DNA of 64,000 nt from Candidatus Eiseniibacteriota bacterium (GCA_963823555.1 CAWGMA010000001.1:1728001-1792000); one strand, 5' to 3'; shown: positions 2,842-59,122, counted from the first letter of the stretch. Made by a program: numbers and translations. The notes: generated from the sequence alone by a model not told the origin.

Positions 2842-4053
2842 ATGACTCACCCTGGAGAGAGCGCGAGCGCACCAGCGGCTACCAAATCACCTCGTCGCAA
2901 CGAGGTGGTCGTCAACGTCATCGGATCCGAGCGTCTGCTCTCGGGTCACCTGTGGGTATTCCGCCCGCAGATCCTCCGTGGCGAACCTGAGGATGGAGCG
3001 GTGGTGCGCGTTACCGATCAGCGCGGCCGCTTCCTCGGGATGGCCTTCCACTCCGCGCAGTCCGCCATCGCCCTCCGCCTCCTCTCGCGCGAGGAGTGCG
3101 CCATCGATGGCGACTTCCTCCGGAAGCTGCTGCGCACGGCGCGGGCGAGGCGAGAGTTCCACCTCCCGGGAGTCACGGCGTATCGCCTCGTCCATGGCGA
3201 GGCCGACGGGCTGCCGGGAACCATCGTCGATGTCTACGGCAGGCACCTCGTGCTCCAGACGCTCACCGCAGGCAGCGAGCACCTCCTGGGGCCGCTCGAA
3301 GAAGCGCTCGCCGAGGTCATGGCTCCGGACTCGATTCTCCTCCGCAATGACCCGGCGGTGCGCCGGCTCGAGGGACTGCCCCGGGAGGTGCGCCAGCTCC
3401 GGGGCACCACCCCACAACGCCTGCACCTCCGCGAGGGATCGATCCATCTCACCGCCGATTGCTGGCACGGGCAGAAGACCGGGCTCTTCCTCGACCAGCG
3501 GGAGAACCGGATCGCCGTCGAGGCCCTCGGCGGCCGCCAGGTCCTCGATTGCTTCAGCTACGAGGGCGCATTTGCGCTCCACGCCGCCACTTTCGCCGAG
3601 CAGGTGACGGCGGTCGATGTCTCGCGCGACGCCCTCTTGCAGGTGGAAGCCCACGCGGAGATGAACGGGCTCGCCAATATCCGCGCGGTCGAGGGCAACG
3701 CCTTCGATGTGCTGCGCTCGTACGCGGTCGGAGGCCAGCGCTTCGATCTCGTGATCCTCGACCCGCCCGCGTTCGCCAAGAACAAGGCCGCGCTCGATGG
3801 CGCCCTGCGTGGCTACAAGGAGATCAATCTCCGCGCCTTGAAGCTCCTCATGCCCGGGGGCCGCCTTGTCACCTCGAGCTGCTCCTATCACATGAACGAG
3901 CAACGCTTCGAGGCCATGCTCCGCGACGCGGCGGCGGATGCGCGGCGGACGGTCAGGGTCCTCGCCCGGCGGGGCCAGGCCGCAGACCACCCGGTGCTCC
4001 TCGGGGTGCCGGAGACCTCCTACCTCAAGTCCTGGGTGCTCGAGGCGGAGTGA
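2842..4053 (+). CDS. Class I SAM-dependent rRNA methyltransferase, RlmI/YwbD family (PUA + MTase)
   Basis: GHLWVF, RLVHGEADGLPG, GQKTGLFLDQRENR, VLDCFSYEGAF, LVILDPPAF, LVTSSCS, PETSYLK motifs. Confidence 0.92.
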   Translation: MTHPGESASAPAATKSPRRNEVVVNVIGSERLLSGHLWVFRPQILRGEPEDGAVVRVTDQRGRFLGMAFHSAQSAIALRLLSREECAIDGDFLRKLLRTARARREFHLPGVTAYRLVHGEADGLPGTIVDVYGRHLVLQTLTAGSEHLLGPLEEALAEVMAPDSILLRNDPAVRRLEGLPREVRQLRGTTPQRLHLREGSIHLTADCWHGQKTGLFLDQRENRIAVEALGGRQVLDCFSYEGAFALHAATFAEQVTAVDVSRDALLQVEAHAEMNGLANIRAVEGNAFDVLRSYAVGGQRFDLVILDPPAFAKNKAALDGALRGYKEINLRALKLLMPGGRLVTSSCSYHMNEQRFEAMLRDAAADARRTVRVLARRGQAADHPVLLGVPETSYLKSWVLEAE

Positions 4054-46259: not shown

Positions 46260-47648
46260 CTAGCGCGTAGCCAGAGGGAAAACCTCCGTCCCGCGCAGCG
46301 CTTGTCCACCGTCATCGAGGTGGACGAGTCGGATCCCGGGATAGTAGTGCTCGAGAATGTCGGCGTGGTCGTGTCCGCGGGCCGCCATGCCCAGGGCACC
46401 GGCCTGACACATGCCGACACCGTGCCCGTTTCCGGCACCGCGAGCCACGACGGTCTCCACTCGATTGCCGCGCTTCTCGACCTCGAGCTCGAACTGCGTG
46501 GATCGCAGGATCGCGCCGCGGCCCCCCGGGCGTCTGAGGACCCATCGGATGCGGTCACCGCGCTCCCCGCCGAGCCGATATTCGCGTCCCCCGGCGCGCA
46601 CCTCGAGAACCCTCACCCGGCCGGAGGAGTTGCGGGCGACGACCCGCACGTCCTCCAATGGACCCTGTGGTTCTGGACCGCCAAATTCCTTCCCTGCATA
46701 GCGTTCGAGCAGGTTCATGAACTCGTTTCCAGTCCACCGCTCCTCCCAGCGGTAGTGCGGGGATGCCGAACAGAAATCGGCCCCTCCCTGCCGATCCGGG
46801 TGCGGTTCGAGGTACGGCTCAGGGGGGAAATTCCACGTCTCCTCGACGGCGGCCGTCATCCCACCGCACGCGGCCGAGTAGTACGCGCCGATCAGAACGC
46901 CGTTGTAGACCGCCACCACGCCGGACGTCTCGGTCACCGCCCGCGATGCACCCGGACGCTCCGCGGACTCACCGCCATAGGCCTGATCGCGCACGTCCCC
47001 GTGGAGGTCGAACCCGAGCTCCGGCCAGCGCTCGAGATGAGACACGGCATAGGTGCGCGCCGCCACGGCCTGGGCCTTCACCGCCTCGATCGCCTCGGCT
47101 CCCGGTGAGCCGATCTCGAGGGGGACGACGCCGAGGAGGTAGTCCTCGAGCTCGACGACGTTCACGGCCGTGAGACGACCCCCCTGGTCGGCGAAGACCT
47201 CGATCCAACCCCGGTAGGAAACCCCATCCGCGGCGAGGAGCATCTCCGCGGGCGGCCGCAGGCGAAGCGTATCGGCAAAGACCCGGGGCTCAGCCCCGCC
47301 AGGATGGACCCTGATCCGGCCCGGGACCGAGGCGGAGAGGCTCATGCGGCGAAACCGCCCGCTCACCTCTCCTCGGATCGTCTCGAGCACGACGGGTTCC
47401 CTGGCGGTCACGGCCAGGGAGTCCTTGCCCACGGCGATCCCGATCCGTAGCGGGCGATCCGGGAGCAAGGGCAAGCGCGCCGCGGGCGGCGCGGTCGGGG
47501 GACTGGGCTTCTTCCCAGCGCAACCGCCGAGGAGGAAGATCGCGGCCAGAAGGAAAGCGGGCGCCGCGTTCCCGAGAAGCCCCCCCGGGGCAGAACGGAG
47601 GCTAACCGGGCGGCCCGGAGCGCATGGACCGATCCTGCTCGTCGCCAT
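46260..47648 (-). CDS. SpoIID/LytB-domain lipoprotein (peptidoglycan lytic transglycosylase); start uncertain
   Basis: Lipobox LLGGC; YRG, VNVVELEDYLLGVVPLE, EAVKAQAVAARTYA, DQAY, YSAACGG, GHGVGMCQAGA, ILEHYYPG. Confidence 0.9.
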   Translation of the reverse strand: MATSRIGPCAPGRPVSLRSAPGGLLGNAAPAFLLAAIFLLGGCAGKKPSPPTAPPAARLPLLPDRPLRIGIAVGKDSLAVTAREPVVLETIRGEVSGRFRRMSLSASVPGRIRVHPGGAEPRVFADTLRLRPPAEMLLAADGVSYRGWIEVFADQGGRLTAVNVVELEDYLLGVVPLEIGSPGAEAIEAVKAQAVAARTYAVSHLERWPELGFDLHGDVRDQAYGGESAERPGASRAVTETSGVVAVYNGVLIGAYYSAACGGMTAAVEETWNFPPEPYLEPHPDRQGGADFCSASPHYRWEERWTGNEFMNLLERYAGKEFGGPEPQGPLEDVRVVARNSSGRVRVLEVRAGGREYRLGGERGDRIRWVLRRPGGRGAILRSTQFELEVEKRGNRVETVVARGAGNGHGVGMCQAGALGMAARGHDHADILEHYYPGIRLVHLDDGGQALRGTEVFPLATR

Positions 47649-47754
47649 CGCACGTCGTCCCTGATGGGCTTGCATCACACTGCGCCACGAGAAACGCGAG
47701 AACGTGCCTGCTGGGGCACGTTCTCGCGTCAGCTCGACATCGGAATCGAAGGTG

Positions 47755-49041
47755 TTATTTGCTCGCGGCCGGGATCGTCACCTCGCCCCGCTTCTGCCCG
47801 CCGTAGAAGGCCACGCCGAGCCCCTTCGACCAGTAGAAGGCCGCATCCATGTTGTTGCCGCTCGAGTCGGTGTAGGAGCGGTACTCCTCCGGAGGTCCCT
47901 TCTCGGTGATCATCTTCGGGAGATCGCCGCTGGCGTACTTCGGATCCGCCTTCAGGCTCTCGGCATCCTGCTCGCTGCCCTTGGCCAGGCTGTTGTACAG
48001 GATGATCCAGCTCTCGGCCGAGGTGTTGTCGCCTGACTGGCGGAGAATGCTGGCCTTCAGCCGGTACCCGTCCGCATCGTGCGGGTCGGCGGCGATGTAG
48101 AGATCGCAGTACTCCGTCGCCTTGGCGAAGTCCTTGGCCTGAATCTCCAGCATACAGAGCTGGTAGTAGACAGCGAGCCTGTCCTGCTTGCTCTCGGCGG
48201 TCGGAGTGAACTTGAGGAGCGCCTCGCGTGCCGGGTCGATCGCTGTCGAGTCCCCGGCGAAGGCCATCATCGCGTACGAAGAGCCGATCTGGTACTGGAG
48301 GTTGGGATTGCTGGAGTCGACCTTCTCGGCCTCCTCGTACCAGACGATGGCCGAGCTGAGAAGGCGCGTCCGTGCCGTGTCCTCGCTGACCTTCGCACCC
48401 TCCTTGTACAGGGCATCACCCTGCTCCATGTAGGAGCTGAGCAGATTGGTGCGCAACCCTTCGTGATCCGGGCACACCTTGAGCCCGGCCTGCAGCACCG
48501 GGATGGCTTCGGCGGGGCGGCCCATCTTGCTCAAGGCCGAGCCCTTTACGTTGTGGGCCTTGCAGCTGTCGGGAGCGATCTGGATGGCGATGTTCGCTTC
48601 ATCGATAGCGGGCTCATAGGCTTCCTTCTTGAAGTAGTCGAGCGACTGGTTGTAGTGCTGCACCCAGAAGGAACCGCGGTTGTTGAGCACCTTCTCGCGA
48701 TCCTTGCCTTCCGAGTACTTGACCGCTTCCATGAAGTAGCAGCCGGACTCGTCGAACTTCTCCATCTCCGCGGCCAGCATCCCCATGAACATGTTCCACT
48801 CCCACTGATCGGGAGTCCCGCACAGGGCGAGATGACCCTGCTCAAACGCCTTCGCCAGGACCTCGGGATCCGGCGGCTTGGTGGCGTGCGCCACGCCCCA
48901 GTAGGACTTGAGGGAGCGGCCGTGCATCTTCGGATCATCCACCTGCTCGCCATCGCATGACTGGCAGACATCGGCGCGCACGCCCGCACTCAGCCCTGCC
49001 AGCAGAACCATGACCAGCGCACCGATCCACTTCACTCTCAT
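47755..49041 (-). CDS. Exported TPR-repeat protein
   Basis: Signal peptide (AGVRA-D); TPR-like helices (AHNVKGSALSKMGRPAEA, LQYQIGSSY). Confidence 0.75.
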   Translation of the reverse strand: MRVKWIGALVMVLLAGLSAGVRADVCQSCDGEQVDDPKMHGRSLKSYWGVAHATKPPDPEVLAKAFEQGHLALCGTPDQWEWNMFMGMLAAEMEKFDESGCYFMEAVKYSEGKDREKVLNNRGSFWVQHYNQSLDYFKKEAYEPAIDEANIAIQIAPDSCKAHNVKGSALSKMGRPAEAIPVLQAGLKVCPDHEGLRTNLLSSYMEQGDALYKEGAKVSEDTARTRLLSSAIVWYEEAEKVDSSNPNLQYQIGSSYAMMAFAGDSTAIDPAREALLKFTPTAESKQDRLAVYYQLCMLEIQAKDFAKATEYCDLYIAADPHDADGYRLKASILRQSGDNTSAESWIILYNSLAKGSEQDAESLKADPKYASGDLPKMITEKGPPEEYRSYTDSSGNNMDAAFYWSKGLGVAFYGGQKRGEVTIPAASK

Positions 49042-49124
49042 CGTTCAGTCTCCCTGCTCGGGCAGAGGGCCTTGCTCGCGCCCGAGTCCAGATCAGTGGA
49101 GACGATCGCGCACCCTACAACCGG

Positions 49125-49907
49125 TCACCGTCCTGCTCCCGCCATGATTCCGCGGACGATCTGCCGCTGGAAGATGAGAAACACGGCGAGGACCGGCAGG
49201 GCTGCGATCGATGACCCCGCCATCAGATGACCCCAATCCACCGAATGCTCGCCTTGCGAGATCAGGGCCAAACCAACCGGCAGGGTACGCATCCCCTCTG
49301 AGCTTGTCAATACAAGGGGATAGAGGAATGAGTTCCAGTTCGCCAGGAAGGTATTGATGGCGAGAACGGCAAGTGCCGGCTTGACAAGAGGAAGCGAAAC
49401 GGAGGCGAAGATGCGCAGATCCCCTGCGCCATCCACCCTGGCTGCCTCCTCGAGCTCGACCGGGACCGAGAGGAACGCCTGGCGCATGAGGAAGACATTG
49501 AACGCATCGACGAGGAAGGGAACGATCAGCGCGGCATAGGTGTCGATCCATCCCAGCCGCGAGACCAGGAGATAGAGCGGGATCATGCTGATCTGTCGCG
49601 GCACCATGAGGGTCACCAGAACGGCGCCCATGACGAAGCCGCGCCCGCGGAAGCGCGCCCGGGCCAGGGCATGTCCTGCCATCGCTGCGAAGATCAGATT
49701 GCCGGCAACGACAGCGGCGGCCACCACGAAGGAATTGAACACGAAGCGCCCGAACATGCCGTCCTGCCAGACGCTCAGGTAGTGGGTGAAAACGCCCCGC
49801 TCGCCGCCGGCGAGGGACAGGCGAAACATGAGCGCCAGCGGGTAGAGCATGGTCAGGAGGGCCGGCACCAGGACCGCCAGGGTCAGGAATGAGGAGCGGC
49901 GGTTCAC
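49125..49907 (-). CDS. Carbohydrate ABC transporter permease (MalG-like)
   Basis: FNS, AGHALAR, FLMRQAF, ELEEAARVDGA (EAA motif), WNSFLYP, TLPVGL; GTG start overlaps the upstream stop. Confidence 0.92.
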   Translation of the reverse strand: MNRRSSFLTLAVLVPALLTMLYPLALMFRLSLAGGERGVFTHYLSVWQDGMFGRFVFNSFVVAAAVVAGNLIFAAMAGHALARARFRGRGFVMGAVLVTLMVPRQISMIPLYLLVSRLGWIDTYAALIVPFLVDAFNVFLMRQAFLSVPVELEEAARVDGAGDLRIFASVSLPLVKPALAVLAINTFLANWNSFLYPLVLTSSEGMRTLPVGLALISQGEHSVDWGHLMAGSSIAALPVLAVFLIFQRQIVRGIMAGAGR

Positions 49908-50770
49908 ACCAGGCTCCGCTGCTCGCTCTTCAACCAGCGCAGCTCGAGGAGCGAGAACACGGCCAGCACCGCGAACAGCAAGTAGGCGACCGCACTCGCA
50001 TAGCCCATGCGGAACTGGTGGAAGGCGGCATCGTAGAGATAGAGGACGACCGTCTCGGTGGAGTGCAGCGGGCCACCACCGGTCATCACGAACACCTCGA
50101 CGAAGATCTGGAAGGACCGCATGGTGTTGACGACCAGGATGAAGAGCGTCATCGGCTTCAAGCCCGGCCACGTCACATGCCGCAACCGGCCCCAGAAGCC
50201 GGCGCCGTCGAGCGCCGCCGCTTCGTAGAGGTCATCGGATATGGCCTCGAGCCCGGCGAGGTAGAGCACCATGTAGTAGCCCACGCTGGCCCATATGTCC
50301 ATGGCCATGATCGCGGGCAATGCGAGCTGGGGATCGAGGAGCCAGCGCTGCGCCGGCAGCCCGATCAGCTTGAGCACCTGGTTGAAGCTACCGAACGGCG
50401 CGTAGAGGTTCTTCCAGATGAGCGAGATCACGACCATCGATACCACGCTCGGCACGAAGAATCCGGCGCGGAACAGCGGGCGAACGGGCAGGGGCCGGCG
50501 GACGAGGAGGGCGAGACCCAGTGCGAGCGTCGTCGTGATCGGGATGGTGCCGAGAACGAAGACGAAGGTGTTACGCAGCGCGCCCCAGAATCGTGGTTCA
50601 CCGAGGGCGCGGGCGTAGTGATCGAGGCCGACGAAAGCCCCGGCGCGGGGGTTGAGCGGCGACCAGTCGAGGAAGCTCAGGGCGATCGATGCGGCGATCG
50701 GGAACAGGCTGAAGACACAGAAAGTGGCGAGGAAGGGCGACAGGAAGAGGAGAGCGCTCCTCTTCTTCAC
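49904..50770 (-). CDS. Carbohydrate ABC transporter permease (MalF-like)
   Basis: FVGLDHY, ALRNT, LYEAAALDGA, MTGGGP, MGYASA; GTG start overlaps the SBP stop. Confidence 0.92.
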   Translation of the reverse strand: MKKRSALLFLSPFLATFCVFSLFPIAASIALSFLDWSPLNPRAGAFVGLDHYARALGEPRFWGALRNTFVFVLGTIPITTTLALGLALLVRRPLPVRPLFRAGFFVPSVVSMVVISLIWKNLYAPFGSFNQVLKLIGLPAQRWLLDPQLALPAIMAMDIWASVGYYMVLYLAGLEAISDDLYEAAALDGAGFWGRLRHVTWPGLKPMTLFILVVNTMRSFQIFVEVFVMTGGGPLHSTETVVLYLYDAAFHQFRMGYASAVAYLLFAVLAVFSLLELRWLKSEQRSLV

Positions 50771-52056
50771 TGTCCGCGGTCCTCCGCCAGGAGCCGATCG
50801 ATTCCAGCAGCAGCATCGCTCACGGCTACCGCTGGCGTCTTCCGGCCGTAGAGCGCCTCCTCGATCTCCAGATCCAGCGCCTGTTCGATCTCGCCCCATC
50901 GGGGATGGGGCGGCGGGGCGACCGCGGTCGCGAGCTGTTCGACGAAGAGCCGGTCCCGGGGATGCTCCAGATAGTACGGATCCTCGGCGGCGCCGCGGGC
51001 GGCCGGCTGGACGCTCCGCGCCGCCCGGCACAGGGCCACTGCGTTGTCGGGCCGGATGAGGAAGCGAGCAAGCGCAATCGCCTGATCCGGGTGGCGTGAG
51101 CCCGTGAAGCTGACCAGGAACTCGCCGCCGGCGAAGGAGGCATGGCTGCCGCGGCCAGCCGCCGGACGCGGTACGAGGGCGACATCGTAATCGAGCTCCG
51201 GCGCGTTATCGGCGAGCGTGCGCAGGTTCCACGCCCCGGAGATCATCATCCCAACGCTACCCTCCTGGAAGGCCCGATCGATGACGTCCTGCTTCTCGAG
51301 CATGGACACCTTGGCGAGGCGGACGTAGAACTCGAGAGCCTCGACGTTCGCCCGCGACGCGAAGGCGGACCGGCCCATGTCAGGCGTGAGCACCGCGCCG
51401 CCGTTGCCCCAGGCGAAGGGCATGAACTTCTTGAAGAGGACATAGCGCTCGCCGGCGTTGAGCCCGAAGCCATGGATCTCAGGACCAAGGGCCGTGATCC
51501 TGGTCGCGGCCGTGATGAGCTCGTCCCAGGTCTCAGGGCCGCGCACCGGATCGAGTCCCGCGCGGCCGAAGAGCTCCCGGTTGTAGAACAGCGCCCGCGT
51601 CCCCACCACCCACGGCAATCCGTACACCTTCCCGGCGTGGCGCGCCGGCTCCCACTGCATGTACTTGCCGGCGAGCGTGTCGGCGACCGCCGACACATCG
51701 ACAAGGACGCCATCGGCGGCGAATCGCGGCAACCAGGTCGAGCCCAGCTCGCACAGATCGGGCGCATTGCCGGCGGCCAGGGCGGCCTGGATCTTCTCCT
51801 GCCCGGCCTGCCAGGTGAGCTGCTCGAGTTCGACCACGATGCCTGGGTTCTCGGCCTCGAAGCGATCGACGAGTGGGCGAATCCACTCCGTGCGCCAGAA
51901 CTGCCAGAAGCGAAGCACAATCTTCCCGTCAGCTTCCCCGCGCTCGCGACCGCCGCATCCGGCAACGAGAAGGAAGGCGAGGCTCGACACCAGGAGAAGG
52001 GCGATGATGCGCTGTGGATCTCGACGTCGAGCGCCACGGTCTGGCGGGTCGATCAT
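50767..52056 (-). CDS. Sugar ABC transporter substrate-binding lipoprotein
   Basis: Lipobox LVAGC; FEAENPGI, GNAPDL..LGSTW, YGLPW, LFYN, PxTWDEL, FAGG; ATG overlaps murQ TGA. Confidence 0.92.
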   Translation of the reverse strand: MIDPPDRGARRRDPQRIIALLLVSSLAFLLVAGCGGRERGEADGKIVLRFWQFWRTEWIRPLVDRFEAENPGIVVELEQLTWQAGQEKIQAALAAGNAPDLCELGSTWLPRFAADGVLVDVSAVADTLAGKYMQWEPARHAGKVYGLPWVVGTRALFYNRELFGRAGLDPVRGPETWDELITAATRITALGPEIHGFGLNAGERYVLFKKFMPFAWGNGGAVLTPDMGRSAFASRANVEALEFYVRLAKVSMLEKQDVIDRAFQEGSVGMMISGAWNLRTLADNAPELDYDVALVPRPAAGRGSHASFAGGEFLVSFTGSRHPDQAIALARFLIRPDNAVALCRAARSVQPAARGAAEDPYYLEHPRDRLFVEQLATAVAPPPHPRWGEIEQALDLEIEEALYGRKTPAVAVSDAAAGIDRLLAEDRGQ

Positions 52057-52988
52057 GGGCATTCCTCCCCCAGCGCGCGGCGCACCCAGCCACCCGCACG
52101 CTCGAGCCGCGCCTCGGCCTCCTCTCGACTCACGCCCAGGCGGCCGATGAGGATCGCGTTCTTGACCCTGCCCTCAGCCTCGGCCAGGAGCCGGGTGGCG
52201 ACCTCGTAGTCGACGTTGCAGGTCATCATGATCAATCGCTTGGCCCGCTCGGTGAGCTTACGGGAGTTGGCGCGTAGGTCGACCATGAGATTGCCATAGA
52301 CCTTGCCCAGTCGGACCATCGTCGCCGTCGAGATCATGTTGAGGATGAGTTTCTGCGCCGTTCCCGCCTTGAGTCGCGTCGACCCCATGATGGCCTCCGG
52401 GCCCAGCACCGGGCAGACAGCCACGTCGACCGTCGAGGAGGGGATCGAGCCTGCGGCGTTCATGGCAACGAGGATCGTTCCCGCTCCCAGTGCTCGCGCT
52501 TTCTCCAGAGCGGCCAGCACGAACGGCGTGCGCCGGCTCGCCGCCAACCCGACCACGACATCGGCCGCTCCCACCCCCCGGCTTTCGAGCGCGCTCACGG
52601 CTCCCTGCACGTCATCCTCGGCTCCTTCCACGGCCCGGATGAGAGCTCCCGGGCCGCCGGCCATCACGCCCTGCACGAGCTCGGGTTCGGTGCCGAAAGT
52701 GGGCGGGCACTCCGCGGCATCAAGCACCCCGAGGCGCCCCGAGGTGCCGGCGCCGACATAGATGAGCCTCCCGCCGCGAGAGAGGCGCTCGACGACGAGA
52801 TCGACGGCGCGAGCAATGTCGTCGATTTCCTGGCGCACGGCCAGGGGGACGGATTGGTCCTCTTCGTTGAGAAGGGCGAGGATCTCTCCCGCGGAGCGGC
52901 AGTCGAGATCGGCGGTGCGAGGATTCACCGCCTCGGTGGTGAGAGCGGAGAGTTGAGCGAAGATCTCGCGATCGCTCGAGTCGGTCAT
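52053..52988 (-). CDS. murQ: N-acetylmuramic acid 6-phosphate etherase
   Basis: LTTEAVN, GAGTSGRLGVLDAAECPPTF, AVEGAED, GPEAIMGSTRLKAGTAQK, GKVYGNLMVD. Confidence 0.96.
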   Translation of the reverse strand: MTDSSDREIFAQLSALTTEAVNPRTADLDCRSAGEILALLNEEDQSVPLAVRQEIDDIARAVDLVVERLSRGGRLIYVGAGTSGRLGVLDAAECPPTFGTEPELVQGVMAGGPGALIRAVEGAEDDVQGAVSALESRGVGAADVVVGLAASRRTPFVLAALEKARALGAGTILVAMNAAGSIPSSTVDVAVCPVLGPEAIMGSTRLKAGTAQKLILNMISTATMVRLGKVYGNLMVDLRANSRKLTERAKRLIMMTCNVDYEVATRLLAEAEGRVKNAILIGRLGVSREEAEARLERAGGWVRRALGEECP

Positions 52989-53017: not shown

Positions 53018-54658
53018 CTAACGCCTTCGCCGGCGAGTCTTGCCCGCCGCCGCGACCTTGGCTTTCTTCATCCCCGTTATGAAGTCGAGCACTCCATCTG
53101 CCTCCGCCACATCATCTTCCGGTGATTCCTCGACCTTCTCCCGGGCTCTTTCACGAGGCTCTGCGTCAGCAGTCGCCTCCGCCGGCGGGGCCGGTTCGAC
53201 CGGGTCGCCTCGACGTGGCAGGCGCGGTGGGCGCCGGCCGAAGCGGGGCGCCGCCTCCTGATCGCGTCCCGTGGCGCGCATCGCCGAGGGCTCGCCGGGC
53301 TCGAGATCGGGAGCCTCCTCGCCCCCATAGCGCTCGCTATCGCGCATGGGACCCTCCTCCCAGCCGCGGCTCCAGGGAGTGGCGTTGGGAGAAACAGGAG
53401 TCTCCTCGACCGGCTCGGGACCGAGGGGTGGCCTCTTGGCCTCCAGCTCGCCCATCACGTTCTCGCCGGCGACGTCTGCGCCCGGAGGCTCTGACTCGCG
53501 ACGGCGCCCGCGGCCGCCACGGCGGCCGCGGCGACGGCGGCGGCGAACCGCATCATCGCCAGCGCCTTCCTCATCACCTGCCTCCCGGCCTTCAAGCTCC
53601 TCCGGCATCGCGGGGACTGGTTCGTACTCCCCGAAGTCAGGAAGATCGGGCATTTCGAGAGCCTCGTCGGCCGGGCTCTCACCGGATCGCAGTTCACCGC
53701 GCGCCGGGATCATCTCGGCCGCGCCGGGCCGGCGTGCGCGCCCGCGTCGCAGCCGATCGAGGCGCTCCGAACGCTCTTCCGGCTCCGGGCGCTCGGGACG
53801 TTCGTCGCGCTCGACCCGAGATCCCCGAGTCACGCGTTCGCCGCGCGCCGCCCGTTCACCGCGAGCTCCGCGCTCTCCGCGAGCCCCACGGGCAACACGC
53901 TCGCCGCGGTCGCGGCGGCCGCGACGATCTCGCGGCTCCGGTTGCTCCTCTTCGGTTCCGAGTTCATCGAGCTCGACCCCCAGATCGGACAGCTCCATCT
54001 CCTCGACGACGGCCTCATCGAGCCCGGCGGGTCCCGCGGGTGGCCGGCCGATGCCCTCGAGATAGTCGACATCGGCTGCGATCTCACTCGCTCCGTCGCG
54101 CTCCATCTCGGCATAGGCTACGGCCATGGCGCGGCCCAGGGCGACGAACATCGCCCGGCAGCGATTCTCATCATGAGCGCCGGACAGGATCCGGATATGG
54201 AGGCTTGCTCCCATACGATCCGCAAACGTACTGAGAAAGCGCTCGAGCAAATCCAGATCCATACCGCTCAGGCGCTTGCTGCGGAAGGTCGCTCCAAACT
54301 GGAAGACCGGTGGAGACACCAGATCGACGGCGGCGAGCACGAGGGCATCACCGACGGGTAGGATCGCGCTCCCGAACTGCCGGATGCGCGGCCGGGAACC
54401 CAGGATGCGGCGATAGGCTTCGGCCAGGGCGCTGGCCAGATCGTCAACCGCGTAGGAATCATCGGCGTGCTTGTTGACGCTCTGGGCCAGACGCAGGTCC
54501 GAGCCAGCGGAGGAGTTCATGAGCTCGAGGAGCTCGTTCAAGAGCGCGAACGGCGTCTCGATCGAAGCGCGGCCGGAGCCTTCCAGCCCGAGCTCGATTT
54601 CGACGTCCGTACCGCGCGTCCGTCGCTTGATGGCGACCCGACGTCTTTCTCTTCGCAT
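53018..54658 (-). CDS. Degenerate HisB/IGPD-fold domain (about 185 aa) fused to a ~360-aa R/G/E/P-rich disordered tail
   Basis: IGPD scaffold RRT.GTDVEIELGLEGSG...DL...I..FG.A..P..DAL...VD...LHI...G...A.F.ALGRAM, with the His/Glu ligands replaced; tail with RGER repeats and RRRRRRGRRGGRGRRR. Confidence 0.8.
   Translation of the reverse strand: MRRERRRVAIKRRTRGTDVEIELGLEGSGRASIETPFALLNELLELMNSSAGSDLRLAQSVNKHADDSYAVDDLASALAEAYRRILGSRPRIRQFGSAILPVGDALVLAAVDLVSPPVFQFGATFRSKRLSGMDLDLLERFLSTFADRMGASLHIRILSGAHDENRCRAMFVALGRAMAVAYAEMERDGASEIAADVDYLEGIGRPPAGPAGLDEAVVEEMELSDLGVELDELGTEEEQPEPRDRRGRRDRGERVARGARGERGARGERAARGERVTRGSRVERDERPERPEPEERSERLDRLRRGRARRPGAAEMIPARGELRSGESPADEALEMPDLPDFGEYEPVPAMPEELEGREAGDEEGAGDDAVRRRRRRGRRGGRGRRRESEPPGADVAGENVMGELEAKRPPLGPEPVEETPVSPNATPWSRGWEEGPMRDSERYGGEEAPDLEPGEPSAMRATGRDQEAAPRFGRRPPRLPRRGDPVEPAPPAEATADAEPRERAREKVEESPEDDVAEADGVLDFITGMKKAKVAAAGKTRRRRR
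53812..53910 (-). repeat. Coding tandem repeat with ~18-bp period (RGERxx)
   Basis: RGERVA RGA RGERGA RGERAA RGERVT RGSRVE; synonymous divergence between copies. Confidence 0.7.
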
Positions 54659-54738: not shown

Positions 54739-54767
54739 AGTCTACCCGCCATGGGGCAGACCAGCAA
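54739..54767 (-). promoter_or_regulatory. Sigma-70-type promoter of the pseudo-hisB/murQ operon
   Basis: TTGCTG-N17-TAGACT, 80 nt upstream of ATG 54658. Confidence 0.6.
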
Positions 54768-54936: not shown

Positions 54937-56506
54937 TTACTTCGACTCCTGCTCCGATACCTTGACCGCCGTGAAGAAGGTCGTGTCCCCGCGGCGAAGG
55001 AGGAGGAGCACCGTCTGACCCGACTCCACGTCCTTCATCACGTTGTTGAAGGCCTCAACCGACGGGACCTCCTTCCGGTTGACCTCCTTGATGAGGTCTC
55101 CGGCGCGGATGTTCTTGGTCGCTGCGGGACCGCTCCGGGCCACTCTCTCGACGACGACGCCGGCGTCACCCTCGTAGCCGAGCTCCTGGGCGAGTCCCGG
55201 GGTCAGCGACTGGATCTCGATCCCGAGCTGGGGGGCGGTCGCCGCCGGCGCCTGGCGATTGGGCGTGCCCTCGTTCTCGCCGCGGTTGAACGCCTCGCGC
55301 GGATTCGCCGGGCGCTCGCCCAGATCCACCGTGAGAGTCACGTCCTTCTTGTCGCGACGCACCTTGACCTTGACCGGACTCCCGGGATCCTGGGCCGCAA
55401 CCAGGGACTGCAGATGATCCGCGTCCTTCACTTCCTTGCCGTTGAACTCGAGCATCACATCGCCGTGCTTGAACCCGGCCTTCTCCGCCGGGCCGCCGGC
55501 GGTGAGGTCATTGACGATCACCCCGTGCCTGGAATCCAGCCCCATACTGGCCGCAAGATCGTCGTCGAGCGACTGGATCTGCACGCCCAGCCAGCCACGA
55601 ACCACCCGGCCGCGATTCAAGAGGTCATCCATGACCTTGCGCGCCATGCTGATCGGGAATGGCGAATCCGACTCCTTGATAGAAGCCGTTCCGCGTGGCG
55701 ATCGCCGTGTTGATCCCGACCAGCTCGCCCCGGACGTTGACCAGAGCCCCGCCTGAGTTTCCTGGATTGATCGCCGCATCGGTCTGGATGAAGTCCTCGA
55801 AATCGACGATACCCACCTGCGTGCGCCCCTTGGCGCTGACGATACCGGCGGTCACGGTGTGGGCGAGGTTCTCGGAGAAGGGGCTACCGACGGCAATGAC
55901 CCACTCGCCGACCTGGAGCAGGTCGGAATCGCCAAAGCGCACCGCCGGGAGGCCCGCGGCCTCCACCTTGATCAGAGCCACGTCGCTCTCGGGATCGGCA
56001 CCGACGACCGTCCCCTTGTACTCCTTGTCATCCATGAGGCGGACGGTGAGCTCCTCGGCATCCTGAACGACATGATTGTTGGTCAGGATGTACCCATCCT
56101 CGGAAACGATGACTCCGGAACCGAGACCGCGTGAACGCATGCCTTCGTCACCGCCGGGTCCCTGCCAGAACCGATTGAAATCGTCGCCGAAGAACTCACG
56201 GAAGGGGTGATTCTCCGGCAAGCCCGGCATCTCGCGGGATGCTGGCTGGATCACCTTCTCGGCGGAGATCGTCACCACGGACGGGTTGACGAGCTCGGCC
56301 ACCTTGACGAAGGCCTTGCTCAGCTGGTCCACGGCAGCGATTTCCTCCGGACCTGGGCCGCTGCCCCCCGTCAGATGACGAACCGCCTTGTTCTCCTCGC
56401 TCATGAGGGGGGAGGTCCACTCGAGGCCGGATGTGAGCATCACGCCCACGAGAATACCGCTTCCGATCAGCAGGGCAGCTAGCCCGGCGCGGCGCTTGCC
56501 ATTCAT
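54937..56506 (-). CDS. degP: DegP/HtrA serine protease with two PDZ domains, interrupted by an extra base near 55655
   Basis: GSGVI, TNNHVV, DVALI, IQTDAAINPGNSGG, GVGFAIP in one frame; continues ISMARKVMDDL...VRGWLGV and PDZ domains in another; junction GCC ATT CCC G ATC AGC. Confidence 0.9.
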
Positions 56507-56651
56507 ACTTTCCACTCCTCCTGCCATCTCGCGCCCGGCTCCGGGCGCCTTGGCTCCATCGCCGTGGGGGTGACCGCGTGAATCGCGGTGGCCGATGGAC
56601 AAACTCAAACGTTTATACCCAGCCGGCGGCGGCTGGGTTTCTGAAGGCTAC

Positions 56652-57083
56652 CTAGGTGCCATCAGGCGCACTGGACTCCCCCGCCACCCGGGAAGGGTCC
56701 GCAGGAGAATCGGTTTCCTCGGCCTCCTTCTCACCACCCTCCTCCTCGGCCGGGGTTCGCTCGGGGCCGACGGCAGACTCTCCGGCACCCACGGGTTCCG
56801 CTGGGGGCCCGGTCCCGGATTCCTCGTCCTTGAGCTCGTCCATGTAATTCATGCGGAGGTCCGTTAGGGCCTGCCGCAAGTAGCGCTCTTCATCCGCAGC
56901 GAGGTTGCCGCGCGTCTTGTGCTCGAGCATGCCGAGCGTGTCGATGGCGTGACGGGCGAGCTTCAAGTTGCGCTGGACACCCTCGGCGCCCGGGTCCTGG
57001 ATCTTGCCGAGGCCGATCCAGGCTGCCAGCCGGTACTCCTCCACGAGGAGCATGAACCGGTCCTTCGCCTCCTTGTCGTCCAT
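56652..57083 (-). CDS. DUF1844-family protein
   Basis: [11 protein letters not shown]...[28 protein letters not shown]...L.DLRMNY; GGAG SD. Confidence 0.85.
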
Positions 57084-57200
57084 ACCCGACTCCAGCCCGG
57101 AGGCCGGCCGCCGGCGACGATCGCGTCGCCAGCGGCCGCTCCCGCATGTTTGAGATCGCGGCGAGCCGCTCGCGGTTGGGCGAATCGGCTCGCCGCTTGG

Positions 57201-59122
57201 CTACTCGACGACCTCGTAGTCCGCTTCGACCGGTCCGTCGCCGGACTTGCCCGCGCCCTGCGCCTGACCCGCGCCGGCGCCTCCTGCCCCGTCAGCGGTT
57301 CCTCCCCCCCGGTCCCCGAACCACCAGCCGCCTGGTAGATCTCGGATCCGAGCTGGGAGCGCACGGTCGTGAGACGCTCGATCGCCGCCTTCAAGTCCGC
57401 GGCGTTGTCACCCTTCATCGCTTCGCGCAGGCTCTCGACCGCCTTCTCGACGTTGCGCCGGGTCTCGAGTCGCGCCTTGTCCCCGTGCTCCTTGAGCTCC
57501 TTCTCGGCCTGGTAGGCGAGCTGGTCGGCGCTGTTGCGGAGATCGATCACCTCTCGCTTGGCCTTGTCCTCGCTTGCATGCTGCTCCGCGGCGGACACCA
57601 TATTCTCGATCTCATCCTTCGAGAGACCGCTCGAGGCCTCGATGCGAATCGACTGCTGCTTCCCGGTGGCCTTGTCCTTGGCCGAGACCGAGAGGATCCC
57701 GTTGGCATCGATGTCGAAGGCCACCTCGATCTGCGGCATGCCGCGCGGTGCCGGCGGGAGCCCGGTCAGGTGGAAGCGGCCGATCGTGCGGTTGTCCGTC
57801 GCCATCGGGCGCTCGCCCTGCAGGACGTGGATCTCCACATCGGTCTGGTTGTCGGCCGCCGTCGAGAACACCTCGGACTTCCGGGTCGGGATGGTGGTGT
57901 TGCGCTCGATCAAGCGCGTGCAGACACCACCCAGGGTCTCGATGCCCAGCGAGAGCGGAGTCACGTCGAGGAGCACGACATCCTTGACCTCGCCGCTCAG
58001 GACACCGCCCTGGATGGCGGCGCCGATCGCCACCACCTCGTCCGGATTGACGCTCTTGTTGGGCTCCTTGCCGAACAGCTCGCGAACGAGCTCCTGCACC
58101 TTCGGGATGCGCGTCGAACCACCGACCAGGATCACCTCGTCGATGTCCGACGGCTTGACGCCGGCATCCGCCAACGCCTGCTTGCACGGCCCGACGGTGC
58201 GCTCGATCAGGTCATCGATCAGCTGCTCGAGCTTCGCCCGCGTCAGCTTGATGGTCATGTGCTTCGGACCGGTCTGATCAGCGGTGATGAAGGGCAGGTT
58301 GATCTCGGTCTCCGTGGTCGAGGACAGCTCGATCTTGGCCTTCTCCGCCGCCTCCTTCAGCCGCTGCAGCGCCATGACGTCCTTGCGCAGATCGATGCCC
58401 TCCTGCTTGAGGAATTCATCGGCCAGCCAGTCGATCACCCGCTGGTCGAAATCATCGCCACCGAGGTGCGTATCGCCGTTGGTCGACTTGACCTCGAACA
58501 CGCCCTCGGCCAGCTCGAGAATGGAGATGTCGAACGTCCCGCCACCAAGATCGTAGACAGCGATCTTCTCTTCCTTCTTCTTCTCGAGACCATAGGCCAG
58601 CGCCGCAGCGGTCGGCTCGTTGATGATGCGCTTGACATCGAGCCCGGCGATCACGCCGGCGTCCTTGGTGGCCTGACGCTGCGCGTCGTTGAAGTAGGCG
58701 GGGACCGTGACCACGGCCTCGGTGACGGTCTCTCCGAGATAGTCCTCCGCCGTCTGCTTCATCTTCTGCAGGATCATGGCCGAGATCTCGGGCGGCGTCA
58801 TGCGCCGGCCCTGCAGGTCGACGGCGGCGAGCCCGTTCTGCCCCTCGATCACCTTGTAAGGCACTTCCTCGATCTCGCGCGGCACCTCCGAGAACTGGCG
58901 CCCCATGAAGCGCTTGATCGAATACACCGTGTTCTGCGGATTGGTGACCGCCTGGCGCTTGGCGACCTGCCCCACCATCCGCTCACCCGACTTGCCGAAG
59001 GCCACCACCGACGGTGTCGTTCGCTGTCCCTCGGAATTGGTGATGACCGAAGGCTTCCCGCCCTCCATCACCGCCACGCACGAGTTGGTGGTTCCGAGGT
59101 CGATTCCGATGATCTTGCCCAT
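57201..59122 (-). CDS. dnaK: Chaperone DnaK; true C-terminus (...[12 protein letters not shown]) reached after a 1-nt indel in the G7 run at 57304-57310
   Basis: [53 protein letters not shown]; typical acidic DnaK tail in a shifted frame. Confidence 0.97.

Follow-up and report, generated by a model that had tools for sequence, protein, structure and literature searches.

What does a gene labelled HisB do when its product has lost the residues of the enzyme and its genome appears to lack the pathway? The question is raised by a 64,000-nucleotide stretch of DNA from Candidatus Eiseniibacteriota bacterium (GCA_963823555.1, CAWGMA010000001.1:1728001-1792000; hereafter the window), which carries on its minus strand an open reading frame (ORF) of 546 amino acids (aa). 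Its product, referred to here as the pseudo-IGPD, combines the fold of imidazoleglycerol-phosphate dehydratase (IGPD, HisB) with a long tail predicted to be disordered. The catalytic residues turned out to be lost across an entire family of such proteins, which seems to be kept by selection in one uncultured bacterial order. We assign a probability of about one half to the reading that the pseudo-IGPD is a metal-free trimeric pseudoenzyme displaying RNA-binding, condensate-prone tails and nucleating ribonucleoprotein (RNP) assemblies.

Loss of the catalytic residues in a family of one order

An earlier note, made from the sequence of the window, had described the ORF as intact and its N-terminal ~185 aa as an IGPD scaffold, and both statements hold. 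No internal stop codon interrupts the frame (54658 to 53018). The profile search that the note had proposed as a check returns the Pfam family IGPD (PF00475) over aa 35-178 with an E-value of 1.2e-27, above the Pfam cut-off; this is the only domain that Pfam finds in the ORF, which shows no RNase E/G catalytic domain. A PDB sequence search matches aa 4-181 to IGPDs with E-values down to 1e-24. The AlphaFold model of the domain (pLDDT 87) superimposes on solved plant and amoebal IGPDs with TM 0.84-0.87 and an rmsd of ~1.8 Å, and IGPD (PDB 4mu0, 2f1d, 7oj5, 6fwh and 1rhy) is the closest known enzyme. Pfam, the PDB search and the model all point to a four-helix bundle between two four-stranded sheets, by which the IGPD fold is recognized. 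Beyond IGPD, Foldseek gave weak matches only (E of at least 0.07), mostly ribosomal chains, which were not used as evidence.

In Medicago IGPD, the Mn ligands are H115, H141, H142, E145, H213, H237, H238 and E241, and R167 and R189 bind the phosphate (PMC10978614). This numbering converts to that of the window protein by a constant, ungapped offset of 73 with exact spacing. The eight ligand positions are occupied here by E42, S68, Y69, D72, R140, E164, N165 and R168 (0/8 kept), the two phosphate-binding positions by Q94 and P116, and the position of the lysine of the FKA motif by V172. All five motif replacements listed in the earlier note are present (NELL at aa 41-44, DDSYAVD at 66-72, PVGD at 101-104, HDENRCR at 162-168 and FVA at 171-173), and with all Mn ligands and both phosphate arginines replaced, its description of the IGPD as catalytically dead is supported.

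The loss is common to the family. Its 14 sequences (P0001 is the window protein; P0008, a duplicate of the sequence from genome G004 of the same order, and P0012, a fragment, were dropped) retain none or one of the eight ligands (6 His, 2 Glu). Of the 143 other IGPDs nearest to the family, 136 keep seven or eight. Further replacements, R99 by Q, R121 by P/T, K177 by V/I/L, E21 by G and D108 by G, are each found in 14/14 sequences, where the Arabidopsis numbering is our own labelling and the Mn and Arg roles follow PMC10978614. E21 is the residue altered in the E21Q catalytic mutant. None of the 13 NCBIfam HisB models reaches its cut-off, the best giving 116 vs 231 bits. New residues have settled at the old sites: the former catalytic and phosphate positions show a mean top-residue frequency of 0.87 within the family, and R91, R148 and R/K168 are fixed in the family and peculiar to it. 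The folded domain contains a median of 23 arginines vs 12 in canonical IGPD and has a net charge of mostly +1 to +5, the canonical median being -5. Arg140 and Arg/Lys168, located at former ligand positions, could replace cations. A family-specific segment that follows the domain is helical in the full-length model, with low to moderate confidence, and holds at aa 185-199 invariant residues where the canonical lid would be.

The pathway seems to be missing as well. In the window genome (G000, 92.5% complete) this IGPD is the only one found genome-wide, and hisD, hisG, hisI and hisE were not found (hisC and hisH were not searched); for the searched families, the earlier note was right that the window holds no other his gene. 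hisD and hisG were found in none of the five genomes of the order, of which the other four (G001-G004, 81-99% complete) give one IGPD match each, and hisE gives only weak partial matches in two of the five. That the protein continues to act as an IGP dehydratase by some unusual chemistry, as the source annotation HisB and the passed Pfam cut-off might suggest, is scarcely credible: every metal ligand and both phosphate arginines are replaced, and the genes by which IGP is formed and converted on to histidine are missing from the genomes. The database label HisB would wrongly imply histidine synthesis in genomes without hisD and hisG. The earlier note had offered as an alternative a regulatory subunit co-assembling with the true HisB, to be checked by modelling the two as a hetero-oligomer. 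Such a HisZ-like role would agree with the retained fold and trimer surface, but it fails because these genomes have no canonical HisB partner: there is no second IGPD in G000-G004, hisD and hisG are absent in 5/5 (one genome is 99% complete), hisI is absent in G000, and no canonical hisB to model was found in the five genomes. We regard it as very improbable. A lone HisA-like TIM-barrel gene with a C-terminal extension lies on another contig of the window genome (G000:C4:498235-498894; L002:1471-2391) and also occurs in G001 (L014), in genomes without the rest of the pathway; it scores below its curated cut-off (101 vs 229 bits) and is possibly a second repurposed his gene.

A region search gave seven relatives of 507-635 aa with 61-77% identity, and a profile search over 1.84 billion representatives gave seven clusters at E <= 1e-64, after which there is a gap and canonical HisB comes next, at 1e-33. 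In a sample of 206 genomes of the phylum (the tallies include the unpublished G053, on which alone no claim rests), the high-scoring pseudo-IGPD form is present in 5/5 genomes of the window's Ca. Eisenbacteria order and in 0/201 others; low-scoring IGPDs occur in 35 other genomes, and those inspected are canonical. In a quick tree, which cannot name a donor lineage, the stem leading to the family measures 1.72 changes per site (support 100) and the internal branches are short. The dN/dS values, only rough because synonymous sites are near saturation, are 0.08-0.38 for the domain (36 pairs) and 0.19-0.30 for MurQ (6 pairs); between G000 and G001, pN is 0.128 for the pseudo-IGPD vs 0.165 for MurQ. 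The dN/dS comparison suggested in the earlier note reveals a constrained domain and no neutral decay. These comparisons establish a long stem branch and then strong conservation across one order, and they argue that the family is kept by purifying selection in the way MurQ is. A core metabolic enzyme appears to have outlived its pathway, a burst of change being followed order-wide by conservation as strict as that of an enzyme.

The disordered tail and its core motif

About 345 aa follow residue 200 (~360 follow residue 185), and pLDDT is below 50 across most of aa 212-526. The alternating acidic and Arg-rich blocks, the RGER repeats (four copies at aa 251-275) and RRRRRRGRRGGRGRRR, which the earlier note had reported over ~360 aa, are all there. 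All 11 complete members of the family carry a tail, of 168-435 aa, together with the ligand loss, which answers the orthologue comparison that the note had proposed. The tails have a fraction of charged residues of 0.37-0.49 and a net charge per residue of -0.01 to -0.08, and their charge blockiness exceeds that of shuffles in 11/11 cases (z 1.7-7.6). The Arg/Gly motif, V-L/I-D-F/Y and the terminal arginines come in the same order in the 11 complete orthologues, which derive from independent assemblies. Conserved hydrophobic motifs, LP(E/D)(L/F)P and VLDFI, and a predicted helix at 526-537 also belong to the tail.

A low-complexity tail that varies in length from 168 to 435 aa, in a GC-rich genome whose antisense frames often look R/D/E-rich, and in a family with two short members, might be a decaying relic or a read-through or assembly artefact. 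We hold this to be a very slight chance. The motifs keep their order in 11 complete orthologues while their codons differ synonymously, the sense frame alone lacks stop codons in each of the six tails tested, tail dN/dS is 0.27-0.47 in four pairs, domain and tail are joined without a gap on an independent contig as well, and no domain-only form was found among proteins shorter than 300 aa. A lost stop codon, which the earlier note had named among the findings that would overturn its proposal, and an antisense frame were both rejected on these grounds.

The tail had also been called RNase E-like. In composition it is; homology is not seen. Matches to RNase E show up only when composition correction is switched off, and with the correction BLAST of the tail, run against E. 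coli RNase E only, gives a best E-value of 0.12, so tail homology to RNase E was rejected. The RNase E/G of the order is a separate gene and is tail-less, and RNase E/G open frames of mostly 510-700 aa in 59/61 genomes show it to be tail-less across the phylum; a trans-acting replacement of a missing RNase E tail was rejected on that account. When the motif region (aa 335-395) was compared with other proteins, none of 2713 candidates scored, owing to low complexity; a genome-wide scan for similar tails was swamped by antisense frames and is uninformative, and an ESM Atlas look-alike to PNPase_C (0.76) is a lead only.

For the core motif of the tail, a codon pattern for RRRRG(R/K)RGGRGRR has matches in 60/206 genomes, including 56/89 of the Eisenbacteria family f10, and the reversed pattern, used as a control, has none. 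Outside the order there are 63 motif places, of which 27 were fetched and 26 gave the motif in an ORF. All 26 ORFs examined, which carry an acidic patch plus RRRRGRRGGRGRR, encode RNA-binding proteins, namely 18 Jag/KhpB and 8 RNase III (17 and 8 by Pfam, the last one as Jag/EloR by NCBIfam). In both groups the motif comes after the acidic patch, and 7/8 of the RNase III tails end in (F/Y)GRR after the core motif, the same order as in the pseudo-IGPD tail; the VLDF motif was not found in these eight tails. The f10 RNase III proteins (L098:409-2385, L099, L106, L115-L118, L120) have charged disordered C-terminal tails of 200-300 aa, and the f10 Jag/KhpB proteins (L095-L097, L100-L105, L107-L114, L121) a similar long linker with the acidic and RRRRGRRGGRGRR motif. 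Unlike the pseudo-IGPD, both have bona fide RNA domains of their own (RNase III plus dsRBD; KH plus R3H). KhpB/Jag proteins are known as global RNA-binding proteins, and in the available text of the source their long linker is noted without a function (10.64898/2026.03.16.712068).

In sequence, the tail comes closest to the appendages carried by RNase III and Jag/KhpB in related Eisenbacteria and not to RNase E, and the f10 tail or linker motif is a candidate RNA-condensate module in bacteria with a tail-less RNase E/G. The association is guilt by association with at most two independent protein families, because the motif is of low complexity and the f10 genomes are kin. The order's own RNase III proteins have tails of 4-58 aa without the motif. 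Besides the pseudo-IGPD gene, one non-acidic frame of G000 has the motif, and this frame overlaps other genes. A Jag-like protein of G000 (G000:C3:90820-91881, minus strand) has a short linker and an RG-rich C-terminal tail of ~90 aa.

Predicted oligomeric state and proposed function

A three-copy model of the domain scores 0.91 vs 0.01 for the best of three controls; the score may reflect memory of solved IGPDs. At least 59% of the contacts recur between separate runs, with a partner pLDDT of 85 or more. The score mark used is reached by 20/30 known homo-pairs and 1/23 monomers, a calibration from which a three-copy job differs. The predicted interface (aa 95-122, 152-160, 172 and 176) is of C3 type through the C-terminal beta-sheet; apart from the old catalytic sites, no class of positions is better conserved (0.84 vs 0.75 for the remainder). 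According to the model, a homotrimer is likely. Canonical IGPD builds a 24-mer that is bridged by Mn between subunits; the IGPDs of several species drop to inactive trimers without Mn, and Medicago IGPD remained a 24-mer in EDTA (PMC10978614). A metal-dependent 24-mer displaying many tails is doubtful here because such an assembly is normally metal-bridged and the ligands are gone; the trimer is the better-supported unit. Of the multimerisation hub proposed in the earlier note, predicted self-association as a trimer stands and the 24-mer becomes doubtful. If a 24-mer nevertheless persists without metal, it would be a ready-made metal-independent protein cage.

We suggest that the predicted homotrimer core would serve as a multivalency hub presenting three predicted disordered tails. 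Their Arg blocks and RG/RGG motifs would bind RNA, the acidic blocks might give self-association by analogy with Caulobacter RNase E, the VLDFI motif could recruit a partner protein, and the tails together may gather RNA into RNP assemblies or condensates. The Arg-rich charge blocks of the Caulobacter RNase E tail drive RNA-dependent condensation (PMC10412687, PMC11321048). If the RNA scaffold is real, a reused oligomeric enzyme could be the basis of RNP condensates in bacteria without a tailed RNase E, and the acidic patch plus RRRRGRRGGRGRR would be a portable RNA-granule motif common to RNase III, Jag/KhpB and the pseudo-IGPD.

Several observations weigh against this scaffold. The motif shared with RNA-binding proteins is of low complexity and may be convergent, and its f10 carriers, being kin, do not count as independent cases. 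DNA, polyphosphate and acidic proteins are likewise bound by Arg-rich polyampholytes. The corrected comparison with E. coli RNase E is negative, as mentioned, and the ESM Atlas look-alikes of the tail are all below 0.9. Since RNase E/G is tail-less phylum-wide, the order has no particular scaffold gap that the protein would have to fill. Two short members, P0009 (281 aa) and L021/P0180 (288 aa, on a 1.5-kb contig in the case of L021), end before the core motif. The neighbours dnaK, degP and murQ are not RNA genes. Finally, new residues have become fixed at seven positions of the old active site (G16, Y69, D72, Q94, G103, P116 and N165), more than a passive hub needs.

The last point leads to the main rival explanation, in which the old active site has been rebuilt for a new ligand or for metal-free chemistry, the domain being a sensor or a new enzyme; the tail would then serve for localisation alone, to RNA granules for instance. 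The invariant Y69, N165, Q94, G16 and G103, R/K168 and R140 at former metal-ligand positions, the invariant family-specific segment (aa 185-199) in place of the canonical lid and a constraint on the domain equal to that on the enzyme MurQ all speak in its favour. We nevertheless consider it rather unlikely. The IGPD site is formed by three subunits around two Mn (PMC10978614) and may not form without the ligands, no candidate substrate pathway co-occurs, and G103, P116 and neighbours lie inside the predicted trimer interface, a location that explains part of their conservation.

The trimer could instead be a protein-protein or nucleoid/polyanion hub of the PopZ/SpmX kind, whose tail recruits proteins, DNA or polyphosphate, perhaps in stress or envelope control. 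LP(E/D)(L/F)P, VLDFI and the predicted helix resemble protein-binding motifs, and the place after degP is kept in 7/7 informative loci. There is also a precedent in SpmX of Caulobacter, in which a lysozyme-like domain with an intrinsically disordered region (IDR) of ~200 aa organises partners (PMC8849385). Such a hub is in our judgement rather unlikely as well, since the gene has its own conserved promoter regardless of the upstream gene, murQ keeps its transporter without the pseudo-IGPD gene in most outgroup loci and is not adjacent in G004, and the other carriers of the core motif are all RNA proteins.

For the RNA-scaffold reading, a bolder version can be formulated, which we regard as possible though doubtful. 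Histidine synthesis would have been lost, and the HisB cage then rebuilt as a metal-free oligomer, a trimer or even a 24-armed particle, with Arg140 and Arg/Lys168 standing in for Mn. Carrying the RNase III/Jag RNA-granule module of sister lineages, it would act as a stand-alone RNP-condensate scaffold.

Metabolic folds reused without catalysis are known, among them PyrR, an oligomeric RNA binder that regulates its own pathway. Neither PyrR nor HisZ is known to carry a long disordered tail. HisZ (PMC9734150) also reuses a metabolic fold without catalysis, and it regulates its own pathway, which is absent here. SpmX is alike in using an enzyme-like domain and an IDR for organisation and not for metabolism, and unlike in its lysozyme-like head, polar localisation via PopZ and kinase client; there is no homology (PMC8849385). 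The scaffolds built on the C-terminal IDR of RNase E, the BR-bodies of Caulobacter and E. coli (PMC10412687, PMC11321048), share with the pseudo-IGPD a folded head, oligomeric by prediction in the pseudo-IGPD, and a long near-neutral charge-block tail with short conserved motifs; here, however, the head is a dead metabolic enzyme, there is no nuclease, and the tail has no homology to that of E. coli. With HisB the family shares the fold (TM 0.84-0.87), the ungapped ligand spacing and the predicted trimer through the C-terminal sheet; it differs in having no Mn ligands, phosphate Arg/Lys or PSTKGxL end, about twice the arginines, a disordered tail of 168-435 aa, a host without hisD and hisG, and scores below the cut-off of 13/13 NCBIfam models. 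The pseudo-IGPD thus falls outside HisB enzymes, as ligands, pathway and cut-offs fail, and outside RNase E scaffolds, for want of a nuclease and of homology, although its way of working may resemble that of the RNase E scaffolds. Pseudoenzymes and organisers made of an enzyme fold plus an IDR are already known kinds; for a dead IGPD with such a tail, no description was found in a literature search that omitted most subscription journals and all supplements.

Gene neighbourhood and related observations

The features of the locus are compiled in Table 1.

Table 1. Features of the pseudo-IGPD locus, in window coordinates
Feature	Position	Strand	Remarks
Full ORF, 546 aa, pseudo-IGPD plus disordered tail	53018..54658	-	Translation, orthologue comparison
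IGPD-fold domain, aa 4-184	54107..54649	-	Arg-enriched; without 8 Mn ligands and phosphate-binding Arg/Lys
Family-specific segment E-R-x-G-A-x-E-x-A-x-D-x-D-Y, aa 185-202	54053..54106	-	Replaces canonical PSTKGxL end
Disordered near-neutral polyampholyte tail, aa 203-546	53021..54052	-	Acidic blocks alternate with Arg blocks
RGER/RGAR repeat block, aa 251-279	53822..53908	-	Differs among orthologues; expanded in G001
Conserved RRRRRRGRRGGRGRRR motif, aa 372-387	53498..53545	-	Behind acidic patch
RFGRR motif, aa 472-476	53231..53245	-	
Conserved V-L/I-D-F/Y-I/V motif, aa 523-527, then terminal Arg run	53078..53092	-	Candidate partner-binding motif
Sigma70-type promoter candidate TTGCTG-N17-TAGACT	54739..54767	-	Invariant in 7/7 aligned loci
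murQ-like gene	52053..52988	-	30 nt downstream; begins murQ-ABC transporter-TPR-SpoIID run
degP/htrA, read as two frames	54937..56608	-	Nearest conserved upstream gene, 7/7 other informative loci

The promoter that the earlier note had read upstream of the gene is present, and CTTG...GTAGACT is invariant in 7/7 aligned upstream regions (the window's family-level loci), even when the upstream gene differs; the motif did not appear in the upstream regions of G003 and G004. Conservation of the 5' untranslated region is limited to this promoter. A simple consensus promoter/terminator scan gave 0 sites, and Rfam 0 matches on eight loci.

Downstream, the genes for MurQ, a sugar ABC transporter, a TPR protein and a SpoIID-domain lipoprotein form one run (46260-52988), which is consistent with a peptidoglycan recycling locus. 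murQ lies downstream of the pseudo-IGPD gene in most loci, and G004 has no murQ match. The murQ-transporter linkage is widespread in the phylum: a solute-binding gene is found at 19/26 outgroup murQ loci listed and the pseudo-IGPD gene at 0/26. A dedicated murQ-operon regulator was rejected, given that this linkage persists without the pseudo-IGPD gene and that G004 lacks a murQ match; murQ is probably a neighbour and not a functional partner.

On the upstream side (54937-59122), the reading frame of degP breaks into two near 55625-55779, odd ends are seen in dnaK and in the ORF at 56963-59122, and dnaK of G001 reads in four frame pieces. These frame breaks are probably long-read indel errors in the assemblies. 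In some loci (L017:1607-2773, L020:4437-5702, L022:962-2083) a conserved, secreted-looking protein of ~370 aa, with two repeated 'INEIIPQG'-type domains and a 'VP...L...RR' sorting-like C-terminal tail, is encoded between degP and the pseudo-IGPD gene. Upstream of the G004 orthologue lies ~1 kb without a convincing ORF (L018:2934-3936), where ARAGORN reports an atypical tRNA-Gly(acc) at 3729-3819 on the minus strand and Rfam gives 0 matches.

Degenerate IGPDs occur outside the family as well. P0021, P0107, P0024, P0060 and P0139 are stand-alone tail-less IGPDs with 2-5 of the eight Mn ligands and separate origins in the tree; several such degenerate proteins have multi-member clusters, and degenerate HisB paralogues recur. 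P0038 (350 aa, from the green alga Cymbomonas according to the source) and P0056 (389 aa) are tandem double-IGPD proteins in which copy 1 retains the NxHHxxE half and copy 2 the DxHHxxE half, an arrangement that suggests a pseudo-heterodimer made by fusion, in which the half active sites of the two copies complement each other.

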